A stretch of 24,000 nt of DNA from Azospirillum sp. SYSU D00513. Lineage in GTDB: Bacteria; Pseudomonadota; Alphaproteobacteria; Azospirillales; Azospirillaceae. Positions 1,872 to 22,098 of the stretch are shown piece after piece (positions within the stretch are counted from its first letter, which is position 1; every line of letters starts with the position of its first letter). The notes beneath the pieces are model-generated. The model was not told the origin of the DNA. It saw only the letters and a program-made list of their open reading frames with translations, and did not search any database. Location: positions 210,954 through 234,953 of the forward strand of contig NZ_JAFIQV010000004.1 in assembly GCF_017356015.1 (NCBI RefSeq). Direction: 5' to 3'. A program made the translations under genes and the position numbers.

Positions 1872-2636
1872 TCAGTTCAGGGCTGCGCCGGGCTTTGCCA
1901 CGGCGACATGGTTGATGCCGGCGACCGTCGCTTCGACGATGCGGTTGGATTGGGTGTTGACGACGCGGATGACGTCGCCCTTGCCGCCGTCCTGCAGGGC
2001 CTTGCCCTGGGCCGACAGCGACATGGTCCCGGTGACCAGCGTGATGGTGACGATGGCGCCCTTGTCGATGATCCGCGGCGACTGGAGATCGCGCAGCCGG
2101 ATCGGCTGGCCGGGGGCGAGCACGCGGCGGGGAACCTGTCCGAGGAGCTGGGCCTCGCCGGCGACGATGTCGCTGCCGGTCTGGTCGGCGCGCATCTCCT
2201 GCCAGGTGATGTCCTCCGGCCCGATGGGCTCGCCGGGCAGGGCGCGCTGGACCAGCATCGGCACCTGCACCACCCCGTAGGCCCGGCCCGAGACGGGCAG
2301 GCGTGCCGCCGGGGCGCCGGCCGGGCCGGTGGCGACCACCTCTGCCGCGAAACGGCCCTGCGCCGCGCTGTAATGGAGGTTCTGCACCGCCAGCCCCTCG
2401 GTTCCCTGCGGGGCGCGCAATTCCAGAGCGCGCCCGTCCAGCTCCAGCCGCATCTCGCCCAGCCGGATCTGCGCGGCCAGCGCGTCCGTCAACACCGCCT
2501 CGATGTGCGGCTGGCCATAGACCACCGGCGCCGACGCCGGCGCTCCGGCGAAGGCCGGGGCGGGGACGGCCGTGGCCGCGATGGCCGAGACGGCGAGGGT
2601 GGTGCCGAGGAGGAGGGCGGCGGCGGTGCGCTTCAT
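1872..2636 (-). CDS. flgA: flagellar P-ring assembly chaperone FlgA
   Basis: N-terminal signal peptide. C-terminal SAF-like segment (GQPIRLRDLQSPRIIDKGAIVTITLVTGTMSLSAQGKALQDGGKGDVIRVVNTQSNRIVEATV), typical of FlgA. Sits between flgG and flgH. Confidence 0.85.
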   Translation of the reverse strand: MKRTAAALLLGTTLAVSAIAATAVPAPAFAGAPASAPVVYGQPHIEAVLTDALAAQIRLGEMRLELDGRALELRAPQGTEGLAVQNLHYSAAQGRFAAEVVATGPAGAPAARLPVSGRAYGVVQVPMLVQRALPGEPIGPEDITWQEMRADQTGSDIVAGEAQLLGQVPRRVLAPGQPIRLRDLQSPRIIDKGAIVTITLVTGTMSLSAQGKALQDGGKGDVIRVVNTQSNRIVEATVAGINHVAVAKPGAALN

Positions 2637-2682
2637 GGCGGAATTCCCTGGGCCGGAGAGGTGTGGTGCGGGTCAGGCCGGC

Positions 2683-3468
2683 TTATTTCAGCTGCCCGGC
2701 CTGCTGCATCATCTCGTCGGTGGTCTTGATGATCTTGGAGTTCATCTCGTAGGCGCGCTGGGCGGTGATCAGCGTGGTGATCTCCTGCACGACGTTGACG
2801 TTCGAGGTCTCCAGCGCGCCCTGGGTCACGCGGCCGAAGCCGGGAGCGCCGGGGTTGCCGCCGATGGCCTCGCCCGAGGCGGGGGTCTGCAGGAACAGGT
2901 TGTCGCCGATGGCCTCGAGGCCGGCCGCGTTGGCGAAGGTGGCGAGCTGGAGCTGGCCGACATTCTGCGGGTCCACCTGGCCGTCCAGCTTCACCAGCAC
3001 CTCGCCCGACGGGTTGATGGCGATGTCCACCGCCTCGGCCGGGACGGTGATGTTGGGCTGCACCGGATAGCCGTCGGCGGTGACGATCATGCCCTCCGGG
3101 CTCAGCTTGAAGTTGCCGGCGCGGGTGTAGGAGACGTCGCCGTTCGGCAGCTCCACCTGGAAATAGCCCGATCCGTTGATCGCCAGGTCCAGCTTGTTGT
3201 CGGTGACGTTCAGGTTGCCCTGCTCCATCACGCGGGACACGGCGGCGATGCGCACGCCCGCACCGACCTGCACGCCGGTCGGCACGATGGTGCCGGCGTC
3301 CGACGAGGTCGAGCCGATGCGGCGGAAGTTCTGGTAGAGCAGGTCCTGGAACTCGGCGCGCTGCTTCTTGAAGCCGGTCGTCGTCGCGTTGGCGATGTTG
3401 TTCGAGATGGTCTCGACGTTGAACTGCTGGGCGATCATCCCGGTCGCGCCGATGGCGAGGCTGCGCAT
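2683..3468 (-). CDS. flgG: flagellar distal rod protein FlgG
   Basis: N-terminal MRSL.IGATGM.AQQ.NV..ISNNIANA.TTGFK and C-terminal LE.SNVN.V.E...LI.AQRAYE.N.K motifs of rod/hook family proteins. 261 aa. RBS AGAAGGAAAG. Confidence 0.95.
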   Translation of the reverse strand: MRSLAIGATGMIAQQFNVETISNNIANATTTGFKKQRAEFQDLLYQNFRRIGSTSSDAGTIVPTGVQVGAGVRIAAVSRVMEQGNLNVTDNKLDLAINGSGYFQVELPNGDVSYTRAGNFKLSPEGMIVTADGYPVQPNITVPAEAVDIAINPSGEVLVKLDGQVDPQNVGQLQLATFANAAGLEAIGDNLFLQTPASGEAIGGNPGAPGFGRVTQGALETSNVNVVQEITTLITAQRAYEMNSKIIKTTDEMMQQAGQLK

Positions 3469-3497
3469 GATGGTTCTTTCCTTCTCTTCGGGATGCG

Positions 3498-4220
3498 TCA
3501 GACGGAGCGGCCGAGCCGCTGGATGGCGGTGCGCATGCGCTCGTTCTCGCTGTCGATCAGCTTCTGGGCCGACTGGTACTGGCGCTGCACGTCGATCATC
3601 GCGGTCATCTCCGAAACGGGCTTCACGTTGGAATTCTCAAGCAAGCCCTGTGCCACTTTCGTGTCCACCGGTGCCGGCTGCGGCTCCTCGTCGCTGACGT
3701 AGAGGCCGGCGCCGACCTCGGTCATCAGCTGCTCGTTGGGGAAGGTGACGATGTTCAACCGGCCGACCGGGCCGAGTTCGGTGGAGATGGTGCCGTCGCC
3801 GGCCACCTTGATGTCCGTGGTGCCGGCGGGGATCGTGATGGGCTGTCCGTTGTCGGCCAGCACGGGCAGGCCGCCCTGGTCCACCACCTGCCGCTGGTCG
3901 TTCATCTGGAAGCTGCCGGCGCGGGTGTAGCGGGGGCCGTTGACCGTATCAACCGTGAAATAGCCGTTGCCGGTGAGCGCCAGGTCCAGCGGGTTGCCGG
4001 TCTGGGCGAGATGGCCGGTGGAAAGGTCGCGCACCACCGCGCGGTCCTGCACGAAGCTCACCTTCTCGTGCAGGCCGGGGCGCTCCACGAACTCCGTGAA
4101 CAGCATGCGCTGCTGCTTGAAGCCCGTGGTGTTCATGTTCGCGACGTTGTTCGAAATGACGTCGAGCTGGCGGCGCAGGGTCATCTGGCGCGACAGGGCG
4201 ACGTAGATCGGGTTTTCCAT
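3498..4220 (-). CDS. flgF: flagellar proximal rod protein FlgF
   Basis: From ATG at 4220 the product starts MENPIYVALSRQMTLRRQLDVISNNVANMNTTGFK and ends LENSNV.PV.EMT.MI...R.Y, which are rod-family motifs. The ORF-track start at 4373 adds 51 non-conserved residues that overlap the promoter region. Confidence 0.9.
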   Translation of the reverse strand: MENPIYVALSRQMTLRRQLDVISNNVANMNTTGFKQQRMLFTEFVERPGLHEKVSFVQDRAVVRDLSTGHLAQTGNPLDLALTGNGYFTVDTVNGPRYTRAGSFQMNDQRQVVDQGGLPVLADNGQPITIPAGTTDIKVAGDGTISTELGPVGRLNIVTFPNEQLMTEVGAGLYVSDEEPQPAPVDTKVAQGLLENSNVKPVSEMTAMIDVQRQYQSAQKLIDSENERMRTAIQRLGRSV

Positions 4221-4276
4221 CGGCGGCCTCTCAGGATCTGTGCCGGCGGAGCCTTTCCGTCCGGCACCCATCCCTA

Positions 4277-4292
4277 TGCAGCCGCCGTGCCA
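4277..4292 (-). promoter_or_regulatory. candidate sigma-54 (-24/-12) promoter for flgFGAH
   Basis: The minus strand reads TGGCACGGCGGCTGCA, against consensus TGGCACG-N4-TTGCA. There is one mismatch (C for T at -14) and the GG-N10-GC spacing is correct. The -12 element is about 55 nt upstream of the flgF ATG (4220). Confidence 0.5.
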
Positions 4293-4365
4293 GTCCAGGA
4301 TCGGCGCCATTTTCCCGAGCCTACCCGGAAGAGTTGGGGCGAACGGGACCCGCTGGTGCCGGCCG

Positions 4366-4427
4366 CCGGGCAAAAGCTGCCGCCGGCCCGGAAAAGATCA
4401 CGGGCGGCGCCCGGCAAGAAGCTCCCG
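4366..4427. promoter_or_regulatory. two related GGCAA-AAGCT-CCG repeats; candidate enhancer (bEBP/FlbD-type UAS)
   Basis: CCGGGCAAAAGCTGCCGCCGG (4366-4386) contains the imperfect palindrome CGGGCA-N5-TGCCGC. GCCCGGCAAGAAGCTCCCG (4409-4427) is a related copy. The centres are about 44 bp apart and lie about 85-130 bp upstream of the sigma-54-like promoter, relative to minus-strand transcription. Confidence 0.3.
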
Positions 4428-4564
4428 TTCCCGCCAGCGGACGCGCGGCGGGTGAGGGCCGGAACCGAAGGCCGGCGGCGGGGCCGCGGCACTGGCGAGG
4501 GGTGCGGCCGCGGCAACCGCGCCTTCAATCAAGAAGCGTGCCGACTCGCCGCGGAACCCCTATC

Positions 4565-4580
4565 CTAAGGGTTTTTTAAC
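4565..4580 (+). promoter_or_regulatory. near-consensus CtrA-box-like motif upstream of fliL
   Basis: CTAA-N7-TTAAC, against consensus TTAA-N7-TTAAC (one mismatch), about 110 bp upstream of the fliL ATG. It is a rare AT-rich motif in very GC-rich DNA. Confidence 0.3.
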
Positions 4581-4690
4581 TATCCGAAAGATAGGCTGAT
4601 CGGGCAGGACGGGCCGGATTTCCCGACGTGAAGCCCCGCCGTGACGCCCCGCCGTGATGAAGCGTCCCCGAACCCACTTCCAGGACACCG

Positions 4691-5233
4691 ATGACCGCGA
4701 CCGCCGACAACGACGCAGGCGACCTTTCGGGCGAAGGCCTGCCGCGCAAGAAGTTCAGCGGCAAGAAGCTGGTGCTGTTCATCATCCTGCCGCTGGTGCT
4801 GCTGATCGGCGCCGGCGCCGGTGTCTATTTCAGCGGGCTGCTGGACTCCCTGCTCGGCAAGGAGGAGCACGCGGAGGAACAGGCGGCGGAGGCGCCTCCG
4901 GCGGACCCGGCGCACGACCCGCTGCTGAACCCGGTCTTCTACGACCTGCCGGACATGCTGGTGAACCTGAACAGCACCGGCAAGCGCCCGTCCTACCTGA
5001 AGATCCGGATTTCGATCCAGCTCTCCAAGCCGGAGGACGTGCCGGCGGTGGAGCATGTGCTGCCGCGCATCATCGACAACTTCCAGGTGTATCTGCGCGA
5101 GTTGCGGCTGGACGACCTGAAGGGGTCGGCCGGCATGTACCGCCTGCGCCAGGAGCTTCTGATGCGCATCACCGCGGCCGCCCATCCCGTGAAGGTGAAG
5201 GACGTGCTGTTCAAGGAAATGCTGGTCCAGTAG
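4691..5233 (+). CDS. fliL: flagellar basal-body-associated protein FliL
   Basis: Single N-terminal TM helix (KLVLFIILPLVLLIGAGAGVYF), then FYDLPDMLVNL......YLKI.I.L, typical of FliL. Immediately upstream of fliM. Confidence 0.9.
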   Translation: MTATADNDAGDLSGEGLPRKKFSGKKLVLFIILPLVLLIGAGAGVYFSGLLDSLLGKEEHAEEQAAEAPPADPAHDPLLNPVFYDLPDMLVNLNSTGKRPSYLKIRISIQLSKPEDVPAVEHVLPRIIDNFQVYLRELRLDDLKGSAGMYRLRQELLMRITAAAHPVKVKDVLFKEMLVQ

Positions 5234-9491: not shown

Positions 9492-10207
9492 TCCGCCTGC
9501 CGCACAACCCGCCGGGCCTGACGCGCCCGGCGAAGGCCGGGCTGGACGCCGAGGCCGCCCCGCCGAAGTCGCTGTGGCTGATCAGCCTGACCGACCTGAT
9601 CTCGCTGATGCTCGCCTTCTTCGTGCTGATGTATTCGATGAGCGAGCCGCTGACGGCCGAGGGCTCGAGCGGGCTTGCCAAGGTGCTGATGTCGGCGCGC
9701 TCCACCGCCTTGGCGCCGTCCAGCGCCGCGCCGGAGCCGAAGGCGGCCTTCAACGCGCAGGCCGTCGAGGCGGACGGCACCATCGACCTGGATTACCTGC
9801 ACGCGCTGCTGCGCAGCCAGACCGGCCAGGATCCGGAGCTGTCCGGGCTGTCCGTGCGGCGCGAGGACGACCGGCTGGTGATCGGGCTGCCCGGCGCGCT
9901 GATGTTCGACGCGCCCGGCGGCGCCTTCTCCGACCGGGGGCGGCGCGTGCTGTTCCTGCTGGGCGCCGCCGTCGGGCGCATCGGCAACCGGATCGAGGTG
10001 GTCGGCCACGCGGAGGGCGAGGAGGGTGCCGACGGCCACGCCTGGGAGCGCTCCCTGACCCGTGCCGTCGCCGTCGCGGCGGCCCTGCGCGAGACCGGCT
10101 ACCGCCGCGACCTCGTGGCGCGGAGCGTCATGGCCGCCGGGACGGGAATGGGCGCCAGCGCCGGACCGCGCGTGGACGTGGTCGTGCGCGACGAGGCGGA
10201 GGGCTGA
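9488..10207 (+). CDS. MotB-like stator/OmpA-family protein
   Basis: The ATG overlaps the upstream stop (ATGA); RBS GGAGG. The N-terminal SLWLISLTDLISLMLAFFVLMYSMS resembles the MotB TM segment with its conserved Asp. The C-terminus is OmpA-like (LVIGLPGALMFD.....FSDRGRRVL..LG..V....NRIEVVGHAEG...WERSLTRAVAVAAALRETGY). Confidence 0.7.
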   Translation: MIRLPHNPPGLTRPAKAGLDAEAAPPKSLWLISLTDLISLMLAFFVLMYSMSEPLTAEGSSGLAKVLMSARSTALAPSSAAPEPKAAFNAQAVEADGTIDLDYLHALLRSQTGQDPELSGLSVRREDDRLVIGLPGALMFDAPGGAFSDRGRRVLFLLGAAVGRIGNRIEVVGHAEGEEGADGHAWERSLTRAVAVAAALRETGYRRDLVARSVMAAGTGMGASAGPRVDVVVRDEAEG

Positions 10208-10212
10208 CGGCC

Positions 10213-13200
10213 ATGGCGGGACGCGCATCGCACCGGCGCTGGCTGCGCGGCCTGATGGCCGCCACGGCCCTGTGCACCGCGCTGGGCGGAGGCCTCCTGG
10301 CCGGCGCGCCGCAGGCCCATGCCGCGACGGTGCCCGTGCGCGCCGCCACCCACCCGACCTACGGGCGCGTCGTGTTCGACTGGCCGGAGCGGGTCGGCTT
10401 CACCGCGCGGGTGGAGGGCAGCAGCCTGATCGTCGCCTTCGACCAGCCCATCGAGGCGCCGGTCCAGCGCGCCGTGTCGGCTCTGCCCGGCTACCTGTCC
10501 GGCGGGCGGATCGCCGCCGACGGCAAGACGGTGGAATTCACCCTGAAGCGGCCGGTCGAGTTGAAGACCTTCCGCAGCGGCAACGGTAACCCCATCGTCA
10601 TCGACCTCCTCCCGACGAAGGACGCGCCCGGGGAGGCTCCCAAGGAGGCGGCTCCGCCCACCGCACCCCAAACCCCAGCTCAAGCCCAGCCGGCCAGGCC
10701 CGCCGCCGGGACGGTGACGGTGCAGGGGAACGACGACGCGACGCACAGCCGCATCGCCTTCAACTGGCCGGGGCCGGTGGACTACACGGTCAAGCGCGAC
10801 GGCAGCGCCGTCACCGTTCTGTTCGACCGGGCCGCGCGGGCCGACCTGTCCCCCGTGGCCCGCGCCAGCCTGCGCAACATCCGCAACGTCGAGAGCTTCC
10901 GCCAGCCGGACGGCAACCTCGCCGTGACCTTCGTCGCACCCCACGGCGCCGGGCTGCGGGAAAGCCGGTCCGGCAGCGCCGTGGTGCTGGAGGTGCTGAA
11001 CACCGGAAGCCCCCCCGCCAAGCCGGCGGAGGCCGCCCAGCCGCAGCCGCAAGCACCGGCACCGGCACAGCCGCAGGCCCAGACGGCCGCCGCGGCCCCC
11101 GCCCCGCAGGCACCGCAAGCACCGCTCCCGGCGGCGCCGGGCCGGGCCACGGCGGACAGCCGCACCACCGCCTCCGCCGCGAACGCCGCCGCCGTGGAGG
11201 CCCCGGCCCCGGCCAGGGCGCCGCAGCCGCCGGTCCAGGCCCACTTCCTGCCGGCGCCGGCCAAGGGCGAGGCCGGGCAGGGGCCGGCGCTGGTCTTCGA
11301 CGCGGGCGGCCCGTCCTCCATCGCGCTGTTCCCGCGCGCCGGGCGCCTCTACATCGTCTTCGACAAGCCGCTTCCCATCGGGGCCGGGCGGATCGTCGGC
11401 CATGGCGGCGAGCTTCTGGGCGCCATCGAGCCGGTTCCGGCGACCGGCGGCACCGCCTTCCGCACGAACATCGGCCCGATGGTCTGGCCGAAGCTCGAGC
11501 GCCAGGGCACGGTCTGGCGGATCACGCCCGCCGCCCGGCTGTCCACCGCCCCGCCGAAGGACATTCCCATCGATCCGGAGCCCGACTTCGTGCTGGGCGC
11601 GCGGCTGCTGGCGCGGGCGCCGGACGCCGCGGCGGTCGTGCAGCTCGTCGATCCGGACATCGGCGACCGGCTGCATGTGGTGCCGCTGCCGGTGCCCGGA
11701 TCGGCGGTGCTGGACCCGCACCGCTACGCCGACCTGGAGGTGATGGCCTCCTACCAGGGCGTGGTCGTGCGCCCCATCGCCGACGGGGTGAGCGTCCGCC
11801 CGGTGAAGGAGGGGGTGGAGCTGGCCGCCGCCGGCGGCCTGCACCTGTCCCCCACCGCCGATTCCGGTCGGCGCCCCAGGGAGGCGGCCCCGGCGGAAAC
11901 GGCCCTGGCGCAGGCGCCGGCTTCCGGATCGCCGCCCTTCCCGGCGCCCGGCGGCGCCTCGGCCGGGCCGGGCGCTCCGCCGGGCGCCGCGACGGGCAAG
12001 GGCGGGCAGCCGCCGCGCCTGTTCGATTTCGCCGCCTGGCAGCGCGGCGGTCTGGACCGTTACACGGAGAACCGGCAGGAGCTTCAGCTCGCCGCCGTCA
12101 ACGCCCCCGATTCGGAGCGGCCGAAGGCGCAGCTCGACCTCGCGCGCTTCTACCTCTCCCAGGGTTTCGCGCAGGAGACGCTGGGTCTGCTCGACGTGCT
12201 GCGCCAGAACCAGCCGGACCTCGATGGCCGGCCGGAGTTCCTGGCCCTGCGGGGTGCGGCGCGCGTGCTGGCCGCCGACCATGAGGGCGCGGCCAAGGAC
12301 CTCGGCGACCCGGTGCTGTCCAGCCATCCGGAAACGGCGCTGTGGCGCGCCGCCAGCGCCGCCGACCTTGCCGCCGACAAGGACGATTGGAAAACGGCGC
12401 TCGACGGCTTCAAGGCGGGCGGCGCGATCCTGGCCCAGTATCCCGAGCCGATCCTCGGCAAGCTCGCCCTGCGCGCGGCGGAGGCGGCCCTGGAGTCCAA
12501 GGACCTTCCCTTCGCCAAGCGCATGCTCGACCGCGTGATCGAGCGCGCGGGCGAGGAGGGGCTGGACCGCCCCGAGCTGCAATATCTGCGCGGCCTCTAC
12601 CACATGCAGACGGAGGAGCCGAAGCCGGCGCGCGAACAGCTCCAGGCCGCCTACGACAGCCTCGACCGCCTCTACCGGGCCAAGGCCGGGCTGGCCCTGA
12701 CCGAGCTGGAGCTGGCCGAGAAGACCATGTCGCCCTCCGCCGCCGCGGAGCGGCTGGGCGGGCTGACCGTCACCTGGCGCGGCGATGCGCTGGAAATGAA
12801 GATCCGCCGCCGCATGGGCCAGGCGCTGATCGAGGCGGGCCAGTACGCCGAGGGCTTCAAGACGATGAAGGAAACGGCGACGCTCGCCGCTGGCACGCCG
12901 CTGGCCGAGGAGATCGCCGGCGACATGACGCGCATCTTCGGCGACCTTTACAAGGACGGCGCCGCCCACCTCTCCACGCTCGACGCGCTGGACCTCTACG
13001 ACCAGTTCCGCGAACTGACCCCCGTGGGGGAGCCGGGCGACGAGATCGTCCGCCAGCTCGCCGAGCGGCTGATCCAGGTCGATCTGCTGAACCGCGCCTC
13101 CGACCTTTTGCAGCATCAGGTGGAATACCGCCTGTCCGGCCCCGAGAAGGCGCGGGTCGGCACGCGGCTGGCCTCTGTCCGGCTGCTCGACAACAAGCCG

Positions 13201-13731
13201 GAGCAGGCGATCCGCGCGCTGGAGCTGTCGAACATCCCCGGCATCCCGCCGGAGCTGGCCGCGGAACGCCGGCTGATGCAGGCCAAGGCGCTCGCCGAAC
13301 TCGGCCGGGGCGAGGAGGCGCTGCTGCTGCTGGCCGAGGACGACAGCAAGGCCGCCGAGCTTCTGCGGGTGGACATCGCCTGGAGCGGCCAGAAATGGGA
13401 ACCGGCGGCCTTCGCGCTGGGCAAGGTCATCGGCCCGCCCCCCGCCGCCGGCACCCCCATCGAGCCCGGCACCTCGCAGCTCGTCCTCAACCGCGCCGTC
13501 GCCCTGGCCCTGGCTGGCGACGGCACCGGCCTGAACCTCCTGCGCCGCGACTTCGGCCCCGCCATGACCACCGGCCCCGACGCCGACGCCTTCCGCGTCC
13601 TGACCCGCCCCGAACAGGCCCTCGGCCTGATCGACGTGAGCACCGTGCGCTCGCGCGTGGCGGAGGTGGATATTTTCAAGGAGTTCCTGAAGGACTACCG
13701 GGCGAAGAATGCGGGCGCGCCGGGGGCTTAG
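10213..13731 (+). CDS. large secreted AMIN-repeat / Pro-Ala-Gln linker / TPR-like protein (1172 aa)
   Basis: RBS GGAGGG. Signal peptide ending AQAHA-AT. Two AMIN-like modules (..THPTYGRVVFDWPERVGFTARVEGSSLIVAFD....IVIDLLP and ..ATHSRIAFNWPGPVDYTVKRDGSAVTVLFD....VVLEVLN). Long P/A/Q low-complexity linker. The C-terminal ~650 aa are helical and repeat-rich (TPR-like). The ORF-track start at 9574 is an out-of-gene extension overlapping the previous CDS. Confidence 0.7.
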   Translation: MAGRASHRRWLRGLMAATALCTALGGGLLAGAPQAHAATVPVRAATHPTYGRVVFDWPERVGFTARVEGSSLIVAFDQPIEAPVQRAVSALPGYLSGGRIAADGKTVEFTLKRPVELKTFRSGNGNPIVIDLLPTKDAPGEAPKEAAPPTAPQTPAQAQPARPAAGTVTVQGNDDATHSRIAFNWPGPVDYTVKRDGSAVTVLFDRAARADLSPVARASLRNIRNVESFRQPDGNLAVTFVAPHGAGLRESRSGSAVVLEVLNTGSPPAKPAEAAQPQPQAPAPAQPQAQTAAAAPAPQAPQAPLPAAPGRATADSRTTASAANAAAVEAPAPARAPQPPVQAHFLPAPAKGEAGQGPALVFDAGGPSSIALFPRAGRLYIVFDKPLPIGAGRIVGHGGELLGAIEPVPATGGTAFRTNIGPMVWPKLERQGTVWRITPAARLSTAPPKDIPIDPEPDFVLGARLLARAPDAAAVVQLVDPDIGDRLHVVPLPVPGSAVLDPHRYADLEVMASYQGVVVRPIADGVSVRPVKEGVELAAAGGLHLSPTADSGRRPREAAPAETALAQAPASGSPPFPAPGGASAGPGAPPGAATGKGGQPPRLFDFAAWQRGGLDRYTENRQELQLAAVNAPDSERPKAQLDLARFYLSQGFAQETLGLLDVLRQNQPDLDGRPEFLALRGAARVLAADHEGAAKDLGDPVLSSHPETALWRAASAADLAADKDDWKTALDGFKAGGAILAQYPEPILGKLALRAAEAALESKDLPFAKRMLDRVIERAGEEGLDRPELQYLRGLYHMQTEEPKPAREQLQAAYDSLDRLYRAKAGLALTELELAEKTMSPSAAAERLGGLTVTWRGDALEMKIRRRMGQALIEAGQYAEGFKTMKETATLAAGTPLAEEIAGDMTRIFGDLYKDGAAHLSTLDALDLYDQFRELTPVGEPGDEIVRQLAERLIQVDLLNRASDLLQHQVEYRLSGPEKARVGTRLASVRLLDNKPEQAIRALELSNIPGIPPELAAERRLMQAKALAELGRGEEALLLLAEDDSKAAELLRVDIAWSGQKWEPAAFALGKVIGPPPAAGTPIEPGTSQLVLNRAVALALAGDGTGLNLLRRDFGPAMTTGPDADAFRVLTRPEQALGLIDVSTVRSRVAEVDIFKEFLKDYRAKNAGAPGA

Positions 13732-13874: not shown

Positions 13875-14237
13875 ATGTCTGCAAAGGGTGGCAGGTTGAA
13901 GAGCAGTCCCAAAGTGTGCAGTACGGGACGCTATGATCTGACAGACGCGCATTGGGAGCGGCTGAAGCCGCCTCTTCCTCCGGAACGTGCGTCAACCGGG
14001 CGACCGAGCCACGGCCACCGGTGCATGATCAATGGGATTCTGTGGATCGCCCGCACGGGCGCGCCCTGGCGTGACTTGCCGGAACGGTACGGCTCGTTCG
14101 GCACGGTTTCGAGTTGGTCCTATCGCTGGCGCAAAGCCGGCATTTGGCAGCGCGTCCTGGAAGCGTTGCAGGCCAGTGCCGACCGTCGGGGCCAGGGTCG
14201 GAGCCCCATACTCCCATTCGAGCCCAGCGGAGGATAA
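13875..14237 (+). mobile_element. IS5-family (IS427/IS1031-group, DUF4096-type) transposase OrfA fragment, truncated
   Basis: RYDLTDAHWERLKPPLPP....GRP....R.MINGILWIARTGAPWRDLPERYGSFGTVSSWSYRWRKAGIWQRVLEAL is the typical N-terminal module. Similarity ends near 14200, and no DDE domain follows. Confidence 0.75.
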
Positions 14238-14239
14238 AC

Positions 14240-14594
14240 TGTGCCGCTAATATCCCGAGGCTCAATTCCAATTGAACTGCACGCCACAAATTGACGATTA
14301 TATGGAAACGCACAACCTTGGCAAATAATTTAGTGTAAAAGATGAAATAAATCATCAATAAACTAAGAATTTACATTTGACTTCCCCATAGCATTTAGTG
14401 AAAACTTTCTAGTATTACCTGCGCGTGTGCATATAAAAGCAAAAAATATTAACTTTTTAACCAAACTAGTGTAAGTCGGTGGCGATCATACGGACGAATG
14501 CAAGCATGAGGTTTGAAAGTTGGGCACGGCATCTGGACGTTTGAAGAGAGATGCTTTATACCAACTCCAGATGATCAATTAAGCGGTATTCCAA
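14240..14594 (+). promoter_or_regulatory. very AT-rich leader/promoter region of the island operon, with repeated ATTTAGTG motif
   Basis: About 355 bp of non-coding DNA; a sampled line is about 28% G+C. The exact 8-mer ATTTAGTG occurs at 14328-14335 and 14393-14400, and the related CTAGTGTAA at 14466-14474. There are several TTGAC(G/T) and TATAAA-like hexamers, but no pair with convincing spacing. Confidence 0.3.
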
Positions 14595-15992
14595 ATGCTT
14601 GCCTTGCAGCCTCAGCGCGCTACGCCAGAACAGTTGCCGATTATCAGCAGTAGGGCAACCGGTGTTGAAATCCTCAGGGGGGCTGCTGGTAGTGGCAAAA
14701 CGACAACAGCAATACTTCGCCTTGAGTCGCTCGCGTTCACCTTTTCTGAACGAATTCAACGGCTCAAATTAGGGCGTCCGGTCAAAATCCTTGTATTAAC
14801 GTATTATCGATCGCTTGCAGGATATGTAGAGGAGCTTGCACGTACTCAGCTTCGTTCTGCTCCTGGGATAGAAGTCCAGGTATCAACATTTGCATCCTGG
14901 GCTCGATTAGGTCTTGGCAATGTACCTATTTTAAACGGAGATACGCAGAGGAATTGGGCGTTACACTTCTGTCGCGGCATTCCTCTTCCTAGTGAGTTTC
15001 TTTTAAATGAGATAGATTATGTAAGAGGAAGATTTAGTCGTGAAAATTTAGAGCATTATGTAGACGCGGATCGCACCGGTCGTGGATCAACACCTCAAGT
15101 TCTGCGGACGTTGCGTCCTCAGATCATCGCTGCAATACAACAGTATGAGAAACATCTACTTGATAATGGAAAGGGATGCCATGATTGGCATACTCTTGCA
15201 CATGATATGAAAAATATGGACAGCTTGCAATACGACATCGTGATCGTTGATGAAGCTCAGGACTTTTCTGCAAATCAACTGCGCGCAGTTATAAAGCACC
15301 TTGCGGAGCCACATTGCCTTACGCTAGTGATTGATACTGCACAGCGCTTGTACCCACGTGGATACACGTGGAGTGAAATCGGCATACGCAACGCGCGCTA
15401 TCATAGGTTGGAAGAGAACCATCGAAATACTGTCGAAATTGCATCTTTTGCTGCAGGTATTATCGATGGCATCCCCCTTGATGACGACGCCACTTTACCC
15501 AATATTGCAGCGCTGTCCCGGCATGGCGATAAGCCTTTAGTGTTGCGCGGGTTCTACAGTGATCAATTAGCTTTCGCTCTTAGGTGGGTGCAAGACCACG
15601 TGGATCTAGAAAAGGAGTCAGTCGCCTTCTTAAAGCCAATGGGTGGTAATTGGTTTAGAGATGTAAGGACTGCACTTGCTGAAAGGGGCATTGATTTTAT
15701 AGAGTTAACACAAAATCGCGAATGGCCACAAGGAAAAGAAAACGTTGCGCTTTGTACAATGCATTCCGCTAAAGGACTCGAGTTTGATCATGTGATAATG
15801 CTCGGGTTAAATGCTGAAAACCTGCCACATGGTGAGGGCTCTGACGATGACACGCTGCTTAGTAAGCGACGCCTTCTTGCCATGGCCGCTGCAAGAGCTC
15901 GGAAAACTGTTATGGTTGGATACAAGCCAGATAGAGCATCTGACCTTATAGAATTCTTCAAACCAGGTACGTTCAAAACTCTTGACGTGTGA
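14595..15992 (+). CDS. minimal SF1 (UvrD/Rep-like) DNA helicase, 465 aa
   Basis: Walker A GAAGSGKTTTA. Motif II IVIVDEAQDF. Motif III-like VIDTAQRLY. Motif IV-like LEENHRNTVEI. Motif V CTMHSAKGLEFDHVIMLG. Motif VI-like RRLLAMAAARARKTVMV. An in-frame stop at 14580-14582 fixes the ATG at 14595 as the first start. Confidence 0.85.
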   Translation: MLALQPQRATPEQLPIISSRATGVEILRGAAGSGKTTTAILRLESLAFTFSERIQRLKLGRPVKILVLTYYRSLAGYVEELARTQLRSAPGIEVQVSTFASWARLGLGNVPILNGDTQRNWALHFCRGIPLPSEFLLNEIDYVRGRFSRENLEHYVDADRTGRGSTPQVLRTLRPQIIAAIQQYEKHLLDNGKGCHDWHTLAHDMKNMDSLQYDIVIVDEAQDFSANQLRAVIKHLAEPHCLTLVIDTAQRLYPRGYTWSEIGIRNARYHRLEENHRNTVEIASFAAGIIDGIPLDDDATLPNIAALSRHGDKPLVLRGFYSDQLAFALRWVQDHVDLEKESVAFLKPMGGNWFRDVRTALAERGIDFIELTQNREWPQGKENVALCTMHSAKGLEFDHVIMLGLNAENLPHGEGSDDDTLLSKRRLLAMAAARARKTVMVGYKPDRASDLIEFFKPGTFKTLDV

Positions 15993-16678
15993 GATCGCAA
16001 ATGGTCAATAGCATGAAGCCACCTGTTGAAAGTATAATTGCGAGTCGAGGTATTGAAGAAGTTTTGCATTTTACAACAAACAACGGATTCGTGGGATGTC
16101 TTGAAATGGGAAGTGTTTTGTCAAGATATCGCCTTCCAAATGAAAAGCACTTATCGTACATCATGGCGCCTACTGCTGATAGAGAAGAAGGAAAGGAATG
16201 GTTTGATAAAACAGAGAATTGGCTGGACTATGTCAATATGTCTGTATCTGAGATAAATTATAGGTTCTTTAGCTTTGCGCAGAGGCGACATCATGGATCA
16301 GACAGGTGGTTTTTGATATTATCATTTTCCTCAGAAATTCTGACTCATGAAAACGTATATTTCACGACTACGAATAATATATATGTTCCTTATGTAAAAA
16401 GAGCACGACATGGGCAAGGATTAGAGGCCATGTTTGCTCCTAATATACAGCGTAAAGCTTCTTGGTATGCTAATCGTGCCCGTCGTGCCGAACGACTTAC
16501 AACCTGTGAGCAGGCTGAGGTACTTTACCCATGCCAGCTTTCGTTAGACTATCTCATGAGGGTCTACGCTCGGACTGAGGACGAAGCTGATCACGCCGCT
16601 GGCTGTTTACGCAGATATCAGCGTTCAAATGTTGCAGTCCTTCTAGATCCGTCTAAATTCGACGGTCAGCCGAACTAG
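15989..16678 (+). CDS. DarT-like (DUF4433-like) ADP-ribosyltransferase, divergent; 229 aa from GTG 15989 (alternative ATG 16001/16013)
   Basis: Compared by eye with Thermus DarT as I remember it. EVLHFTTNNGFVGCLEMGSVL matches IYHITHIDNLKGILRMGKLL. DYVNMSVSEINYRFFSF matches DYVPFYFCPRSPMLY. ILSFSSEILTHENVYFTTTNN matches LVSS..AV...GLPFVFTDRH. CEQAEVLYPCQLSLDYLMRVY matches RRQAEFLVRYRIPWSLVEEIVV, which carries the catalytic Glu. Not verified by a profile search. Confidence 0.5.
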   Translation: MRSQMVNSMKPPVESIIASRGIEEVLHFTTNNGFVGCLEMGSVLSRYRLPNEKHLSYIMAPTADREEGKEWFDKTENWLDYVNMSVSEINYRFFSFAQRRHHGSDRWFLILSFSSEILTHENVYFTTTNNIYVPYVKRARHGQGLEAMFAPNIQRKASWYANRARRAERLTTCEQAEVLYPCQLSLDYLMRVYARTEDEADHAAGCLRRYQRSNVAVLLDPSKFDGQPN

Positions 16679-16699
16679 GCTTGGAAATGGGAGAGCAAG

Positions 16700-18397
16700 G
16701 TGCCCGATGTCGATACCGCCGTCACCAATTCCGCATTGTGGGCGGCCGCCGGCGATGCGCTTGGCTGGATAGCTGAATTAACAGATGAGGCAGGTTTGAT
16801 TCGACGCATCGGCAAAGGTCGGCTATGCCGACCAGTCAGCTGGCGGCGAAAAATCGGAGGTATGAATGGTGCGACGGTTCAACTCCCTGAAGGGACGTAC
16901 TCCGATGATACACAGCTCCGAATAGCGGTTTGCCGTTCAATTCGCGGAGATGGATCGTTTGATACAGAAGCATTTGCTAAAATCGAATTACCAGTATGGC
17001 TGAATTATTCACTCGGCGCGGGGCGAGGAACTAAAGCTGCAGCCACGAACCTTTCCAAGCGTGATGTCAGTTGGTACTCCAACTTTTTCACTGGTGGCAA
17101 TGGGCGTGGCTACGTCGACGCGGGCGGAAACGGAGCCGCTATGCGCATACAGCCGCATGTATGGCAAACTGGTGGCAGTGCTAAACGGAGTTATCTGGGA
17201 AACGTTATTCGAGATGCTGTCGTTACTCACGGCCATATGCGAGGTATACTTGGAGCGGTATTTCATGCGGACTGTGTAGCATATGCGCTTAGAGAGGGAC
17301 GTGTGCCCTCTCCTGAGTCTTGGGAGGAATTCATTGAAGACGGCTTCCGGTCAGTAAAGAGTGCGCTCGAATCGGATCCACAGCTTAGTAGATTTTGGTT
17401 AAGCTCATGGGAGGCGGAGAGCCAGAAGCCTTTTGGCCATGCAATCGAAGCAACGATAAATGAAGCAAAGCAATTATTGCGCCGTCTTTCTGTTGCTATA
17501 GAAAGCCCGTCCTTCGATGCATACGTCAGGGTTTTAGATGCATTAGACATGCGGTCAGAAGAGCGACGTGGCGCTGGCCTCCATTCAGCGTTAGCTGCAG
17601 TTTCAGCTGCATGGCTATATAAATATGATCAGATCGAATTTGCGTTAGTTGAGGTTGTGAATGTTATCGGCTCTGACACTGATACAATTGCAACAATGGT
17701 AGGAGCTATTCTCGGCGCGACCAGCAATCATGCTCCTGAATGGCCTATTCAGGATCATGCATATATTGTCGCACAAGCCCAAAGGCTTGCGCGTATAGCC
17801 AAGGGGGCTTCAGAAGAAAGTTTCCCTTATCCTGACCTGTTCTCTTGGCAGGCTCCCACTACGCAAAGTGATGGAGTGGGTAAAATTGAGGATGGTCTCG
17901 CTATCGCTGGTCTTGGGAAAATAGAAGTGTTTGGGGAGAGGTGGATTTCAGGGAATTTTTCATGGCAATGGGCGCGTCTTCCATTTGGTCAAACTGTTCT
18001 ATGTAAAATGAAATCGGAAATGGCGGGGGTGGTTCCGGCTTATAATCTTCCGCCCTTAGAGCAAGGAAAAAGTAGGTCGGCATCTAAGTCTCAAGATGCT
18101 GGCGTGCTGCATCAGGAAAAGTTGCCGCTTAATGTAAGTGAGCATTTTAAGAAAGAAGAGTTGGATCTCCGGAGTCTGCCAAACGCAGCATTAAGTCATA
18201 ACGGACGATTGCAGAAAGGAAGGACGCTTGATATGATAACTGATGAGGTCATAAGAAATAACTTTGATGAGCGAGTTATTGGGGTGTGTTTTCTGGAGTG
18301 CCTAAATTCTGAGGAGGGTATTGAACGGGCGATGGCATTTTCTGCTATTCTTGCAAAAGCTCATCTTGCTCGAAACAGAAGAAATAGCAGACGTTAG
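16700..18397 (+). CDS. ADP-ribosylglycohydrolase (ARH/DraG family) with ~190-aa uncharacterised C-terminal extension, 565 aa
   Basis: GTG start 5 nt after GGGAGA. ARH signature motifs are present: AAGDALGW (nt 16751-), GTYSDDTQL (SDDT at 16901-16912), GGNGAAMRI, and GSDTDTIATMVGAILGA (DTDT at 17675-17686). Residues ~375-565 match nothing I recognise. Confidence 0.85.
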   Translation: MPDVDTAVTNSALWAAAGDALGWIAELTDEAGLIRRIGKGRLCRPVSWRRKIGGMNGATVQLPEGTYSDDTQLRIAVCRSIRGDGSFDTEAFAKIELPVWLNYSLGAGRGTKAAATNLSKRDVSWYSNFFTGGNGRGYVDAGGNGAAMRIQPHVWQTGGSAKRSYLGNVIRDAVVTHGHMRGILGAVFHADCVAYALREGRVPSPESWEEFIEDGFRSVKSALESDPQLSRFWLSSWEAESQKPFGHAIEATINEAKQLLRRLSVAIESPSFDAYVRVLDALDMRSEERRGAGLHSALAAVSAAWLYKYDQIEFALVEVVNVIGSDTDTIATMVGAILGATSNHAPEWPIQDHAYIVAQAQRLARIAKGASEESFPYPDLFSWQAPTTQSDGVGKIEDGLAIAGLGKIEVFGERWISGNFSWQWARLPFGQTVLCKMKSEMAGVVPAYNLPPLEQGKSRSASKSQDAGVLHQEKLPLNVSEHFKKEELDLRSLPNAALSHNGRLQKGRTLDMITDEVIRNNFDERVIGVCFLECLNSEEGIERAMAFSAILAKAHLARNRRNSRR

Positions 18398-18460: not shown

Positions 18461-18487
18461 GGATGCAGGGTTGTGATGCCTGCATCC
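18461..18487 (+). terminator. hairpin, candidate intrinsic terminator of the island operon
   Basis: GGATGCAGG-gttgtgatg-CCTGCATCC forms a perfect 9-bp stem, 63 nt after the ARH stop, followed by ATTATCTTCC (moderately T-rich). Confidence 0.5.
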
Positions 18488-18605: not shown

Positions 18606-19078
18606 ATGTGGGTCAAGGTCATGATGACGCGCCGCGGCCGACATTGCCTGAACTTGGAGGATAAAGACACGCTGGCTCGGGCGCCACCGGATCGTATCGC
18701 AGCGCTCAGAGCGAAACTGGGACAGCCGCCGAAGACGCCGAACAAATCCAGCCTGCTGTCGGCCGTTGCGTTCGAAGCAAGCCTAGAAGCCTGCGGCTAC
18801 GCGAGAACTTGTCCCCGGCCCCACTACACTAACAACTGCCATGGTATGTGTGCGCCCGCTGTTCTTCGGACATCATGACCCATGGCCAAGTGGATCACCA
18901 TGCCTACGACCACGTTGTCCTGCTGACGATTCTGCCTGACGTGACGCGGCCCCAGATTTTCGGCCGGTGCTGTCCCGACTCTCGGCTGCGGGTGCGTGCG
19001 GAGCGCTCCCGACACCATACCGCTAAGCTCGCCCTTTCGCCCACCTATTCTGACGATGGTGGCCCATCGCCATCATGA
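18606..19078 (+). pseudogene. IS66-family transposase N-terminal remnant, frameshifted and truncated
   Basis: Frame 1 gives RIAALRAKLGQPPKTPNKSS (IS66 LGxPPKTPxNSS motif). Frame 2 gives HAYDHVVLLTILPDVTRPQIFGRCCP (IS66 zinc-finger-region motif YDH.E.P.I.PDVTR..L.GG.CP). No DDE domain follows. Confidence 0.45.
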
Positions 19079-19358
19079 ACACGCAATAAGCTATGAGCGG
19101 CTGCTCCTATTATGGCCAAGCTTTTCAGGCCGCGTATGAACGCAGTGTAATCGGTAAAGTTTTCGGCGAAAATGGCTGTATGTCTGAGTATCTCATTACT
19201 GGTGCGTTCAGCAGGGCTAAGCCAAGACCCATTAGGCCTGCTTGTCCTATGTGCAGAAAGATGTCGAGTGTGTTATTATCGACAGCAAGCGTCACTTCTT
19301 ACCAGCTTGGGACGTCCATTGTCGTCGAGGGACGACCAGGGGAATCGCTTGAACGGTT

Positions 19359-19673
19359 TCAGGCTGGTTGGCGGATAACGGCCTCCAGGTAATCGCTGTT
19401 CCATGATGCCTTTTTGCGTTGAACGGCGAAGCTCTGCTTTCCCGGAGCGGCGCGCAGCAGGTTCATGGCCATGTGGCGCAAGACGGCCATGTTCTGCGGC
19501 CCGCGGTCGGAGCGGAGGCGGCAGAGGTCGTCATGAAAGACGACGTCCATCACCCAGTGCAGGCCGTTTTCCACGTGCCAGTGGCAGCGTACGGCATGGG
19601 CGAACAGCCGCGCGTCAAGAGGGGCGGAGGACAGGAACTGCACGAGCAGCGCGACCGGCTCGCTGCCGCCCAT
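19359..19673 (-). pseudogene. ISAs1-family transposase, C-terminal ~100 aa only
   Basis: FAHAVRCHWHVENGLHWVMDVVFHDDLCRLRSDRGPQNMAVLRHMAMNLLR....K.S...KRKKASWNSDYLEAVI matches the ISAs1/H-repeat C-terminal signature (HW.IEN.LHW.LDV.F.ED..R.R......N.A.LR..ALNLL). The N-terminal ~280 aa are missing, and the fragment abuts the EamA gene. Confidence 0.8.
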
Positions 19674-19685
19674 TGAGCGGGGCGG

Positions 19686-20549
19686 TCAGCGGGCGAAGCG
19701 TTTGGCCCCGGCCACGCAGGCCACGACCGCTCCCGTGACGGCCACCATCGGCCAGCCGACAGTTTCGCCCAGCAGGGTCGCGGCGAGCGTCAGGCCGAAG
19801 AAGGGCTGGAGGAGCTGCAACTGCCCGACGGCGGCGATGCCGCCCAGCGCCAGGCCGCGGTACCAGAACATGAAGCCGATCAGCATGCTGAACAGGCTGA
19901 CATAGCCGAGCCCGATCCAGGCGCCCGTCCCGATGGCGGCCCAGGAGCGGGGCAGGGTGCCGAGCATCAGGGGCAGCATGACGGGCAGGGACAGGACCAG
20001 CGCCCAGGAGATCACCTGCCAGCCGCCCAGCCGGCGCGACAGCCGGGCGCCCTCCGCGTAGCCCAGGCCGCAGAGCAGGATGGCGGCGAGCATCAGCGCG
20101 TCGCCGGCCAGCGAGGCGGTGCCGCCCTGGAACAGGGCGAAGCCGGCGACCAGCAGGCTGCCGCAGCCGGAGAAGAGCCAGAAGGCCGGCTTGGGGCGCT
20201 CGCCCCCGCGCAGCACGCCGAACGCCGCCGTCGCCAGCGGCAGCAGGCCAATGAAGACCAGCGAATGGGCCGAGGTGACGTGGCGCAGCGCCAGCGCCGT
20301 CAGCAGGGGGAAGCCCACCACCACGCCGCCCGCCACGACGATCAGGGGCAGGAGGTCGGCGCGGTCCGGCCGGCGGACGCGCAGGGCCAGCAGCAGGGCC
20401 AGCGCCAGCAGTGCGGCGATGGAGGCGCGGGCGACCGTCAGGAACAGCGGCTCGAAATCGGCCACGGCGGCCCGCGTGGCGGGCAGGGAGCCGCTGAAGA
20501 TCAGCATTCCCAGGAAGCCGTTGACCCAGCCAACCACCGATCGGTCCAT
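19686..20549 (-). CDS. EamA/DMT-superfamily transporter
   Basis: About 10 predicted TM helices in a two-EamA-repeat architecture (GMLIFSGSLPATR...; GYVSLFSMLIGFMFWYRGL). ATG at 20549 is preferred over TTG at 20576. Divergent from a MocR regulator. Confidence 0.85.
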   Translation of the reverse strand: MDRSVVGWVNGFLGMLIFSGSLPATRAAVADFEPLFLTVARASIAALLALALLLALRVRRPDRADLLPLIVVAGGVVVGFPLLTALALRHVTSAHSLVFIGLLPLATAAFGVLRGGERPKPAFWLFSGCGSLLVAGFALFQGGTASLAGDALMLAAILLCGLGYAEGARLSRRLGGWQVISWALVLSLPVMLPLMLGTLPRSWAAIGTGAWIGLGYVSLFSMLIGFMFWYRGLALGGIAAVGQLQLLQPFFGLTLAATLLGETVGWPMVAVTGAVVACVAGAKRFAR

Positions 20550-20679
20550 CGTCGCTCTCCGCCGCGCGCGGCCCAATGGCGGCCTCTGTCGCCCGCCTTA
20601 TCGCGCGGCGGGCCATGGCCTTTCCAGGGACAGTCCATTACAGTTTGCCCGAACTGTCATGCTCCGGGGAGCGGTACGG

Positions 20680-22098
20680 ATGGACGGGTCGGGCGTCGCG
20701 GGCGTGGAGCTTTCCAGTGGGGAGGGCGGCACGCTGGTCGAAAGGGTCATGATGGCGATCCGGCAGCGGATCGCCGGGCGCACGCTGGCGCCGGGTGCGA
20801 AGCTGCCTTCCATCCGCGCCTTCGCGGAGGCCGCGGGCGTGTCGAAATCGACGGTGGTCGAGGCCTACGACCGGCTCGCCGCCGAGGGGGTGATCCAGCC
20901 CAGGCGCGGCTCCGGATTCTATGTGGCCGGCCACGCGCCGCCCCTGACGCTCGCCGACCTCGGCCCCCGGCTGGACCGCGCCGTCGATCCGCTCTGGATC
21001 TCCCGCCAGTCGCTGGAGGCGGGGGAGGAGGTGCTGAAACCCGGCTGCGGCTGGCTCCCGGCTTCCTGGATGCCGGAGGAGGCGATCCGGCGGAGCCTGC
21101 GGTCGCTCGCCCGCTCGCCCCAGGTCGGCGTCACCGACTACGGCCCGCCGCTCGGGCTGCCGGCGCTGCGGCAGCTCCTCTGCCGGCGGCTGGCCGAGCG
21201 TGGGATCGAGGCGGGGCCGCAGCAGATCATGCTCACCGAATCAGGCACGCAGGCGATCGACCTGCTGTGCCGCTTCCTGATCGAGCCCGGCGACACGGTG
21301 CTGGTGGACGATCCCTGCTACTTCAACTTCCACGCCATGCTGCGCGCCCACCGGGCGACCGTCGTCGGCGTGCCCTACACCCCCGCCGGGCCGGACATCG
21401 AGCGCTTCGCCGCCGCACTCGCGGAGCATCGCCCGCGCCTCTACATCACTAACGCCGCCCTCCACAACCCGACCGGCGCGACGCTGGCGCCCGCGGTGGC
21501 GCACCGGCTGCTGAAGCTCGCCGAGCAGCACGGGCTGACCATCGTTGAGGACGACATCTTCGCCGACTTCGAGCCGGAGCCGGCGCCGCGCCTCGCCGCC
21601 TTCGACGGGCTGGAGCGGGTCATCAGCATCGGCAGCTTTTCCAAGACGCTGTCGGCCGCCATCCGCTGCGGCTACATCGCGGCGCGGCCCGACTGGCTCG
21701 AGGGGCTTCTCGACCTGAAGGTCGCCACATCCTTCGGCAGCGGCCCCTTCTCGGCGGAGCTGGTGCTGGCCCTGCTGAAGGACGGCACCTACCGACGGCA
21801 TGTGGAGGGGTTGCGGCAGAACCTCGCCCGCGTCATGGGGGAGACGGCGCGGCGGCTGCGGGTCGCCGGGCTGACGCCCTGGATCGAGCCGCGCGGCGGC
21901 ATGTTCCTGTGGTGCGGCCTGCCCGACGGGCTGGACGCGGCGGAGATCGCGCGGCGGGCCTTGGCCGAGGGGGTCGTGCTGGCGCCCGGCAACGCCTTCA
22001 GCCTGTCGGGCTCGGCGGGCCGCTTCCTGCGCTTCAACGCGGCGCAGTCGCGCGACCCGCGCGTCTTCGAGGTGCTGGAACGCGCGATGCGCGGGTGA
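20680..22098 (+). CDS. MocR/GabR-type GntR-family regulator with aminotransferase-like (PLP fold type I) domain
   Basis: wHTH segment (AIRQRIAGRTLAPGAKLPSIRAFAEAAGVSKSTVVEAYDRLAAEGVIQPRRGSGFYV), then a class-I aminotransferase-like domain (YITNAALHNPTGATL, SFSKTLSAAIRCGY). The start is ambiguous between 20659 and 20680. The ORF-track start at 20080 is an extension antisense to EamA. Confidence 0.88.
   Translation: MDGSGVAGVELSSGEGGTLVERVMMAIRQRIAGRTLAPGAKLPSIRAFAEAAGVSKSTVVEAYDRLAAEGVIQPRRGSGFYVAGHAPPLTLADLGPRLDRAVDPLWISRQSLEAGEEVLKPGCGWLPASWMPEEAIRRSLRSLARSPQVGVTDYGPPLGLPALRQLLCRRLAERGIEAGPQQIMLTESGTQAIDLLCRFLIEPGDTVLVDDPCYFNFHAMLRAHRATVVGVPYTPAGPDIERFAAALAEHRPRLYITNAALHNPTGATLAPAVAHRLLKLAEQHGLTIVEDDIFADFEPEPAPRLAAFDGLERVISIGSFSKTLSAAIRCGYIAARPDWLEGLLDLKVATSFGSGPFSAELVLALLKDGTYRRHVEGLRQNLARVMGETARRLRVAGLTPWIEPRGGMFLWCGLPDGLDAAEIARRALAEGVVLAPGNAFSLSGSAGRFLRFNAAQSRDPRVFEVLERAMRG

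Follow-up and report, generated by a model that had tools for sequence, protein, structure and literature searches.

A 24,000-nt stretch of the genome of Azospirillum sp. SYSU D00513 (contig NZ_JAFIQV010000004.1, positions 210,954-234,953, forward strand; hereafter the window) carries three co-directional open reading frames (ORFs) on the + strand, at 14595-15992 (465 aa), 15989-16678 (229 aa) and 16700-18397 (565 aa), and we conclude that this region is very probably an intact, horizontally acquired and functional-type DarHTG cassette, a three-gene anti-phage system of the toxin-antitoxin type. DarHTG, also listed as candidate Liu-DS3, comprises DarH, a UvrD-like helicase without the 2B subdomain, the toxin DarT, and DarG3, an antitoxin that resembles ADP-ribosylglycohydrolases (ARH) of archaea and eukaryotes (Liu et al., Nucleic Acids Res. 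2026, PMC13069673). Expressed from its native promoter, it protects E. coli against the phages T4, T5, T7 and SSL_2009a; defence requires the active site of DarT and the ATP-binding residues of DarH, and a DarG3 mutant could not be constructed (PMC13069673). The initial annotation of the window had presented the trio as an undescribed and unnamed system. This is refuted by the cataloguing of the architecture as DarHTG in April 2026, when that paper appeared; the architecture is already known, named and validated, and the window copy is a further ortholog rather than a new system.

When compared with the trio of E. coli AR_0128 (within NZ_CP021722.1 3037339-3057082; 465, 221 and 561 aa, annotated as '3'-5' exonuclease', 'DarT family' and 'ADP-ribosylglycohydrolase family'), the three window proteins aligned full-length and colinearly, with identities of 47%, 47% and 43% (E = 3e-163, 3e-68 and 5e-151, respectively). 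The E. coli trio was present in 21 of 5,426 complete genomes (0.39%), a frequency that fits the prevalence of <0.5% reported for DarHTG in this species (PMC13069673), and it was chromosomal, in an island rich in integrases and insertion sequences (IS). The window and DarHTG thus have in common the order, strand and sizes of the genes, a UvrD-like helicase that apparently lacks 2B and retains its ATP motifs, a DarT-fold toxin with its catalytic Glu, an ARH-like antitoxin, and homology of all three proteins. A decayed pseudogene cluster was considered and rejected, since all ORFs have the full length of their orthologs and no catalytic motif is disrupted. As an intact, divergent ortholog, the window copy is suited to comparative biochemistry of DarHTG. 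The AR_0128 island itself adjoins ychF; tyrosine integrases, a number of IS fragments and the remnant of a CbtA-family toxin lie in it, along with a 1,300-aa P-loop NTPase on the opposite strand that may be another defence gene.

The linkage of the three genes was strict. A search of 185,579 species genomes with DarT only returned 80 loci, and in 78 of these the helicase gene was located directly upstream and the ARH gene directly downstream on the same strand; the two exceptions were one locus cut by a contig end and one with a partial DarT. The co-occurrence of the trio in other genomes, proposed in the initial annotation as a point to be checked, is therefore confirmed, as is its view of the helicase as a third component, which these loci show to be obligate. 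Taxonomically, they come from Alpha-, Beta- and Gammaproteobacteria, Acidobacteriota, Actinomycetota, Desulfobacterota-type lineages, Planctomycetota, Bacteroidota, Chloroflexota and Saccharimonadales, amounting to at least seven phyla. The conserved core of DarT begins a median of 2 nt past the helicase stop codon, annotated records from E. coli, Cereibacter and Streptomyces show the H-T-G order as well, and two plasmid copies have an annotated 4-nt stop/start overlap like the GTGA of the window. A fourth gene did not recur in the neighbor survey described below. The DarT clade was found in only 5 plasmid records, and no phage-borne copy was found among 50,697 phage records. Copies other than that of the window adjoin integrases, Tn7-like genes or IS elements, or ride conjugative plasmids. 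A divergent trio (31% DarT identity) resides on pST1, an 18.8-kb linear plasmid of Streptomyces tsukubensis, where it directly adjoins TnsA-like and DDE-type (TnsB-like) transposase genes (positions 1-2353 of the locus record), which suggests that it is carried as Tn7-like cargo.

The base composition of the region sets it apart from its surroundings. GC content is 38% in the leader upstream of the operon and 47% in the operon, compared with 71-72% in the host flanks, and GC at third codon positions (GC3) is 0.37-0.41 in the operon as opposed to 0.93-0.96 in fliM and motB. Because these values lie so far below those of the flanks and of the two flagellar genes, the island is clearly foreign and horizontally acquired. 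GC, GC3 and the identities of the neighboring genes thus agree with the earlier description of an AT-rich island inside a GC-rich flagellar cluster.

Gene 2 encodes a protein with the DarT fold, as the initial annotation had proposed from alignment by eye. It matched the Pfam DarT profile (PF14487), scoring 59.3 bits where the cutoff is 22.5, and when its AlphaFold model (predicted local distance difference test score, pLDDT, 91.9) was compared with the PDB using Foldseek, all of the top eight matches were DarT proteins. The best match was DarT1 of E. coli C7 (8baq; template modelling (TM) scores 0.72/0.79, root-mean-square deviation 3.1 Å), while the DarT2 structures from Thermus, Thermosipho and M. 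tuberculosis scored lower (TMq 0.57-0.62; TMt 0.59-0.67, standalone chains). Likewise, a profile of the DarT family found DarT1 at E = 7e-9 and DarT2 without significance (E = 0.17). As modelled, the toxin is therefore structurally nearer DarT1 than DarT2. Taking the roles of DarT1 residues from Schuller et al. (2023, PMC11543638), we found that H27-F28-T29 of the window DarT correspond to H17-F18-T19, R46 to R35, the invariant N129 to the base-coordinating N104, and E177 to the catalytic E152, a position occupied by Ala in the aligned crystal form, E152A; R65-x-E67 is the probable match of the R52-x-D54 dyad. Both H27-F28-T29 and Q175-A176-E177 show little or no variation among the homologs of this toxin, and E177 is encoded by the very codon that had been put forward as the catalytic one (Table 1).

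Gene 1 matched the Pfam families UvrD_C, AAA_19 and UvrD-helicase, UvrD_C being matched only at profile positions 282-347 of 350. Among 71 orthologs, the Q motif, Walker A (GSGKT), DExQD and motifs III, V and VI were at least 95% conserved. Together with the conservation of the DarT and ARH motifs, these matches corroborate the superfamily 1 (SF1) helicase, the DarT H-x-T and QAE segments and the ARH motifs that had been read from the sequence initially. The spacing between motifs II and V is ~154 aa in DarH vs ~327 aa in E. coli Rep, and DarH appears to lack the 2B subdomain, the deficit being about 2B-sized. ATP-binding mutants of the E. coli DarH lose defence (PMC13069673). In RefSeq, two of the three window genes already have correct family names and the helicase is named only '3'-5' exonuclease'; the same PGAP label is given to DarH in the E. 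coli (7992-9389), Streptomyces (2547-3947) and Cereibacter (3598-4998) locus records. Judged from its domains, this product name is misleading, because Pfam and the motifs indicate a UvrD-type ATPase of SF1 and an exonuclease domain is absent.

Gene 3 matched the Pfam family ADP_ribosyl_GH (PF03747) with 123 bits over residues 15-340, and the motifs SDDT (68-71), GNGAAMR (143-149) and DTDT (326-329) are invariant among the homologs of this protein. Using the DarG3 model (pLDDT 85), Foldseek retrieved archaeal MJ1187 (TMt 0.82), ARH3, DraG, Tri1 and the immunity protein of a Listeria ADP-ribosyltransferase (ART)-ARH pair; a macrodomain was not found by Pfam, and NADAR was found by neither Pfam nor Foldseek. 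The proposal that the usual macrodomain or NADAR antitoxin is here replaced by an ARH-fold hydrolase is thus supported, and on the basis of its motifs the ARH domain is predicted to be catalytically competent, with a two-metal site. Following this domain, the model has a C-terminal module composed of a beta-domain (~389-438), a disordered and variable linker (455-505) and a three-helix bundle (510-564) with an Arg/Lys-rich, RRRR-type tail. The module was kept in 77 of the 78 complete loci. Searches for its beta-domain and helical bundle gave nothing significant in Pfam (E <= 10) or in PDB profile searches, and only 419 matches were found among 1.84 billion representatives, the full-length ones carrying the module after an ARH domain; of the matches of odd length that were scanned, 10 of 10 were ARH proteins, 8 of them truncated N-terminally. 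By these searches the module is confined to DarG3-type ARH fusions, and it could contact DarT or DarH.

The comparison with other known systems delimits the assignment. DarTG2 consists of the toxin DarT2 and the macrodomain antitoxin DarG, and ADP-ribosylates thymidine at N3. The window trio shares with it the DarT fold, the toxin-antitoxin logic and the anti-phage role, but membership in DarTG2 was rejected, as Pfam detected no macrodomain, Asn takes the position of DarT2 H119, and the match to DarT2 was not significant; a helicase is present in addition. DarTG1 consists of DarT1 and a NADAR antitoxin and modifies guanine N2 in single-stranded DNA (ssDNA) (Schuller et al. 2023, PMC11543638). 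It provides the nearest solved toxin structure and the shared residues listed above, whereas identity to the window toxin is only ~20%, the window has an extra, obligate helicase, and its antitoxin is of the ARH fold rather than NADAR, for which reason membership in DarTG1 by antitoxin was rejected. In Tre1-Tri1, the Listeria ART-ARH pair and DraT-DraG, as in the window, an ARH-fold hydrolase adjoins an ADP-ribosyltransferase as a reversal or immunity factor, and these hydrolases are structural neighbors of gene 3. However, the transferases of these pairs belong to other clades and act on protein Arg, a helicase is absent from them, and gene 3 is longer by a C-terminal module of ~200 aa. A DraT/DraG or Tre1/Tri1 type was rejected in view of the DarT-fold partner and of NCBIfam scores of 41.9 bits for DraG and 10.7 bits for Tri1, against cutoffs of 337 and 490. 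Gabija, finally, also has a UvrD-type ATPase in a defence context, and the window helicase gave PADLOC matches to GajB, but these lay mainly at the generic UvrD_C end (residues ~378-446) and the partners here are DarT and ARH. This system was rejected because no GajA OLD/TOPRIM nuclease is present in or beside the operon, the neighbors being DarT, ARH and IS fragments.

A full-text literature search gave no other or earlier name for the architecture and retrieved only PMC13069673. The terms 'DarT3/DarG3' in a Vibrio preprint were considered as an earlier name and rejected, the digits being superscript reference numbers. A 2022 survey of NAD+ and ADP-ribose systems in viruses names only DarT-Macro/NADAR (PMC9503650), and the DarT literature up to February 2026 recognizes only DarT1/NADAR and DarT2/macrodomain. 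The initial annotation was accordingly right that no name was to be found in older catalogues: with PADLOC-DB v2.0.0, the DarT model scored 20.9 bits on gene 2, gene 3 was unmatched, and the helicase matched GajB and 'NERD+UvrD' via its generic UvrD_C end. It follows from these scores that tools built on that release miss or mislabel DarHTG. Beyond the main text of PMC13069673, our analysis adds the near-absolute linkage over at least seven phyla, a toxin nearer to DarT1 that appears to be without its guanine readers, and the module of DarG3.

These data allow a mechanism to be proposed. In uninfected cells, DarG3 would restrain DarT through its two-metal ARH site, which would remove the ADP-ribose installed by DarT, and perhaps also through its C-terminal module, which may tether or occlude DarT or DarH. 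Infection would tip the balance, upon which DarT would ADP-ribosylate, in an NAD+-dependent manner, the ssDNA of the replicating phage and, collaterally, that of the host; this modification would block replication and lead to an abortive-infection-like outcome. DarH would spend ATP to translocate and unwind, presenting ssDNA to DarT, or would recognize phage replication intermediates. That the helicase exposes ssDNA or senses foreign DNA had been suggested in the initial annotation, and we treat both as ideas. Our data establish the folds, the conserved catalytic residues, the orthology, the linkage and the foreign origin of the island; the DNA substrate, the enzymatic reversal by ARH, the role of the helicase and the activity in Azospirillum are inferred. 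A bolder version of this scheme, tentative and somewhat on the doubtful side, would be that DarT of DarHTG installs a linkage other than the two DarT products known so far, thymidine-N3 and guanine-N2 (at another base or atom, or at a phosphate), which would make DarG3 the first two-metal hydrolase of the ARH fold devoted to undoing a DarT-type modification of nucleic acid, that the 2B-less helicase would feed the substrate, and that the C-terminal module would couple the three proteins.

Several points weigh against the assignment to DarHTG or against parts of this scheme. The E. coli trio was equated with Liu-DS3 by its matching description and prevalence, and the window copy differs from DarHTG in that its host is an alphaproteobacterium, Azospirillum, and its sequences are ~55% divergent. 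An enrichment of the trio beside defence genes, which the initial annotation had suggested looking for, was not strong: when the 3.5-kb flanks of 67-68 loci were surveyed by comparing the longest ORF of each flank with Pfam, a strong enrichment of defence genes was not seen, and the neighbors were heterogeneous (scattered transposases, integrases, resolvases and ResIII/SMC ATPases). This survey, limited to the longest ORF, is crude and likely takes in spurious ORFs in high-GC genomes. With respect to the toxin, K74 and Y75, which read guanine O6/N7 in DarT1, align to F96 and A97 in a hidden Markov model alignment in which this loop is uncertain at 20% identity. By this alignment, the catalytic core is DarT1-like and base specificity is not transferable from DarT1, both guanine readers appearing to be replaced. 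With respect to the antitoxin, reversal of base-linked ADP-ribose is not known for any enzyme of the ARH fold, and a DNA-base substrate is an assumption for this reason. A published table of hydrolases likewise assigns thymidine adducts to macrodomain-type enzymes (DarG2, TARG1, SCO6735) and guanine adducts to NADAR, and has no ARH for base adducts (PMC12945103). As the main rival to the proposed mechanism, the same cassette might contain a DarT clade with a target other than a DNA base, such as a protein side chain (Arg, Ser), a nucleic-acid phosphate end, or RNA, which would explain an ARH-fold partner in place of a macrodomain or NADAR. Besides the apparent loss of the guanine readers and the hydrolase table, this would agree with the activities of characterized ARH folds, which act on Arg-linked ADP-ribose (DraG, ARH1, Tri1) or on Ser-linked and phosphate-linked nucleic-acid ADP-ribose (ARH3) and are the structural neighbors of gene 3, and with the fact that the DarHTG paper reports phage phenotypes without a substrate (PMC13069673). 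However, the window toxin has the full DarT fold and is nearest to DNA-modifying DarT1, it retains N129 and the R-x-acid dyad, and an SF1 helicase of the DNA type as an obligate partner points to nucleic acid as the substrate. We therefore consider a non-base target rather unlikely.

The remaining alternatives concern the function of the operon rather than its substrate. It could be mainly an addiction or stabilization toxin-antitoxin module of the mobile island, or passive cargo, without a meaningful anti-phage role in Azospirillum. The operon does lie amid IS remnants in a low-GC island of foreign origin, other copies occur on plasmids, Tn7-like elements and integrative islands, and the failure to obtain a DarG3 mutant in E. 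coli (PMC13069673) is typical toxin-antitoxin behavior. On the other hand, the flanking IS copies are dead and no mobile element is left to stabilize, the intactness of the three ORFs and of all catalytic motifs suggests ongoing selection, and the E. coli ortholog, driven by its native promoter, gives protection from four phages (PMC13069673), so that this possibility appears distinctly improbable. A physiological role, in which reversible ADP-ribosylation of DNA would regulate host replication or growth rather than provide immunity, could be proposed by analogy with M. tuberculosis DarTG, which is reported to control replication and gene expression (PMC12170906). The sporadic distribution of the trio (0.39% of E. 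coli genomes), its foreign composition, its variable neighborhoods and the demonstrated phage phenotype of the ortholog (PMC13069673) make such a role very improbable indeed, and an anti-phage DarHTG cassette remains the reading that we prefer.

Table 1. Positions in the window of the probable DarHTG operon, its key motifs and the boundaries of the island.
Feature	Position	Strand	Evidence
Truncated IS4/IS5-type transposase, N-terminal fragment; left island boundary	13875-14237	+	DUF4096 PF13340, 91 bits; 120-aa ORF
AT-rich leader upstream of darH, presumed promoter region	14238-14594	+	GC 0.38; no Rfam family
darH, SF1/UvrD-like helicase, apparently without a 2B-sized segment	14595-15992	+	Pfam, orthology, motif spacing
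Walker A GSGKT, DarH residues 32-36 (G32, S33, G34, K35, T36)	14688-14702	+	each at least 95% conserved
darT, DarT-fold ADP-ribosyltransferase	15989-16678	+	Pfam, AlphaFold model, Foldseek, orthology
E177 codon (QAEVL segment), predicted to encode the catalytic glutamate of the ART	16517-16519	+	invariant in 30 homologs
darG3, N-terminal ARH (ADP-ribosylglycohydrolase) domain, residues 1-367	16700-17800	+	Pfam, Foldseek, motifs
darG3, family-specific C-terminal module, residues 368-565, then stop codon	17801-18397	+	model, conservation
9-bp GC-rich hairpin GGATGCAGG/CCTGCATCC, arms 18461-18469 and 18479-18487	18461-18487	+	direct reading, inverted-repeat search
ISAs1-like DDE transposase, C-terminal fragment; right island boundary	19359-19673	-	Pfam DDE_Tnp_1, profile positions 148-200 only

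The tight packing of the three same-strand genes given in the initial annotation, with a GTGA overlap, a 21-nt gap and a 9-bp hairpin, was borne out by the ORF list and by direct reading. At 15989-15992, the TGA stop codon of the helicase (15990-15992) shares bases with GTG 15989. The start of DarT is ambiguous, the candidates being GTG 15989, ATG 16001 (used by NCBI; 225 aa) and ATG 16013, and depending on the start the junction is either the 4-nt overlap or a gap of up to 20 nt. The 21-nt spacer between darT and darG3 holds GGGAGAG, ahead of GTG 16700. The ARH protein annotated by NCBI in SYSU D00513 has 553 aa and starts 12 codons 3' of GTG 16700; the longer ORF is more likely the correct one, because the alignment with the E. 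coli ortholog begins at window residue 8 and GTG 16700 is preceded by GGGAGAG. A promoter scan found no consensus sigma-70 promoter on the + strand upstream of the operon, and promoter-like sites in the region were at chance level (6 found vs 7.1 expected). The best promoter-like match (14297-14324; TTGCCA, 16 nt, TATAAT; 11/12) is on the - strand of the AT-rich leader, directed away from the operon. The hairpin begins 64 nt after the darG3 stop codon, has no T-run and was not called as a terminator; it is a possible candidate for the end of the transcript.

Two of the three dead IS elements reported in the initial annotation to flank the operon were confirmed and define the boundaries of the island, and the right-hand one has ~72-73% DNA identity to the transposase genes of the ISAs1-like elements ISAzs15 and ISAzs5 on plasmids of Azospirillum sp. 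B510. The third, at 18.6-19.1 kb, was not confirmed, as a Pfam scan of this interval gave no match. An ORF within 18656-19145 contains a 'PPKTPNKSS' peptide that resembles IS66-family transposases, and the third remnant stays unproven. At the DNA level, the interval 18656-19145 is 71% identical to a stretch of the Azospirillum ramasamyi plasmid NZ_CP029836.1 that carries no annotation. Around the island, no RNA elements, tRNA attachment sites or flanking direct repeats were detected.

The setting is one of flagellar and motility genes, with an FlgF/G-type rod protein, FliM, CheZ and MotB encoded upstream of the island and FliP downstream. Between motB and the island, a very long ORF (9574-13731, + strand) with Pro/Ala-rich and repeat-like regions gave no Pfam match at E <= 0.001, despite its position in the flagellar cluster; its protein probably begins near an internal, signal-peptide-like MAGRASHRRWLRGLMAATALC. 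The interval 19686-22098, which separates the island from fliP, encodes an EamA-family transporter (- strand) and a GntR-aminotransferase fusion (MocR/PdxR-like regulator), and the flagellar cluster is therefore already broken by non-flagellar genes on this side.

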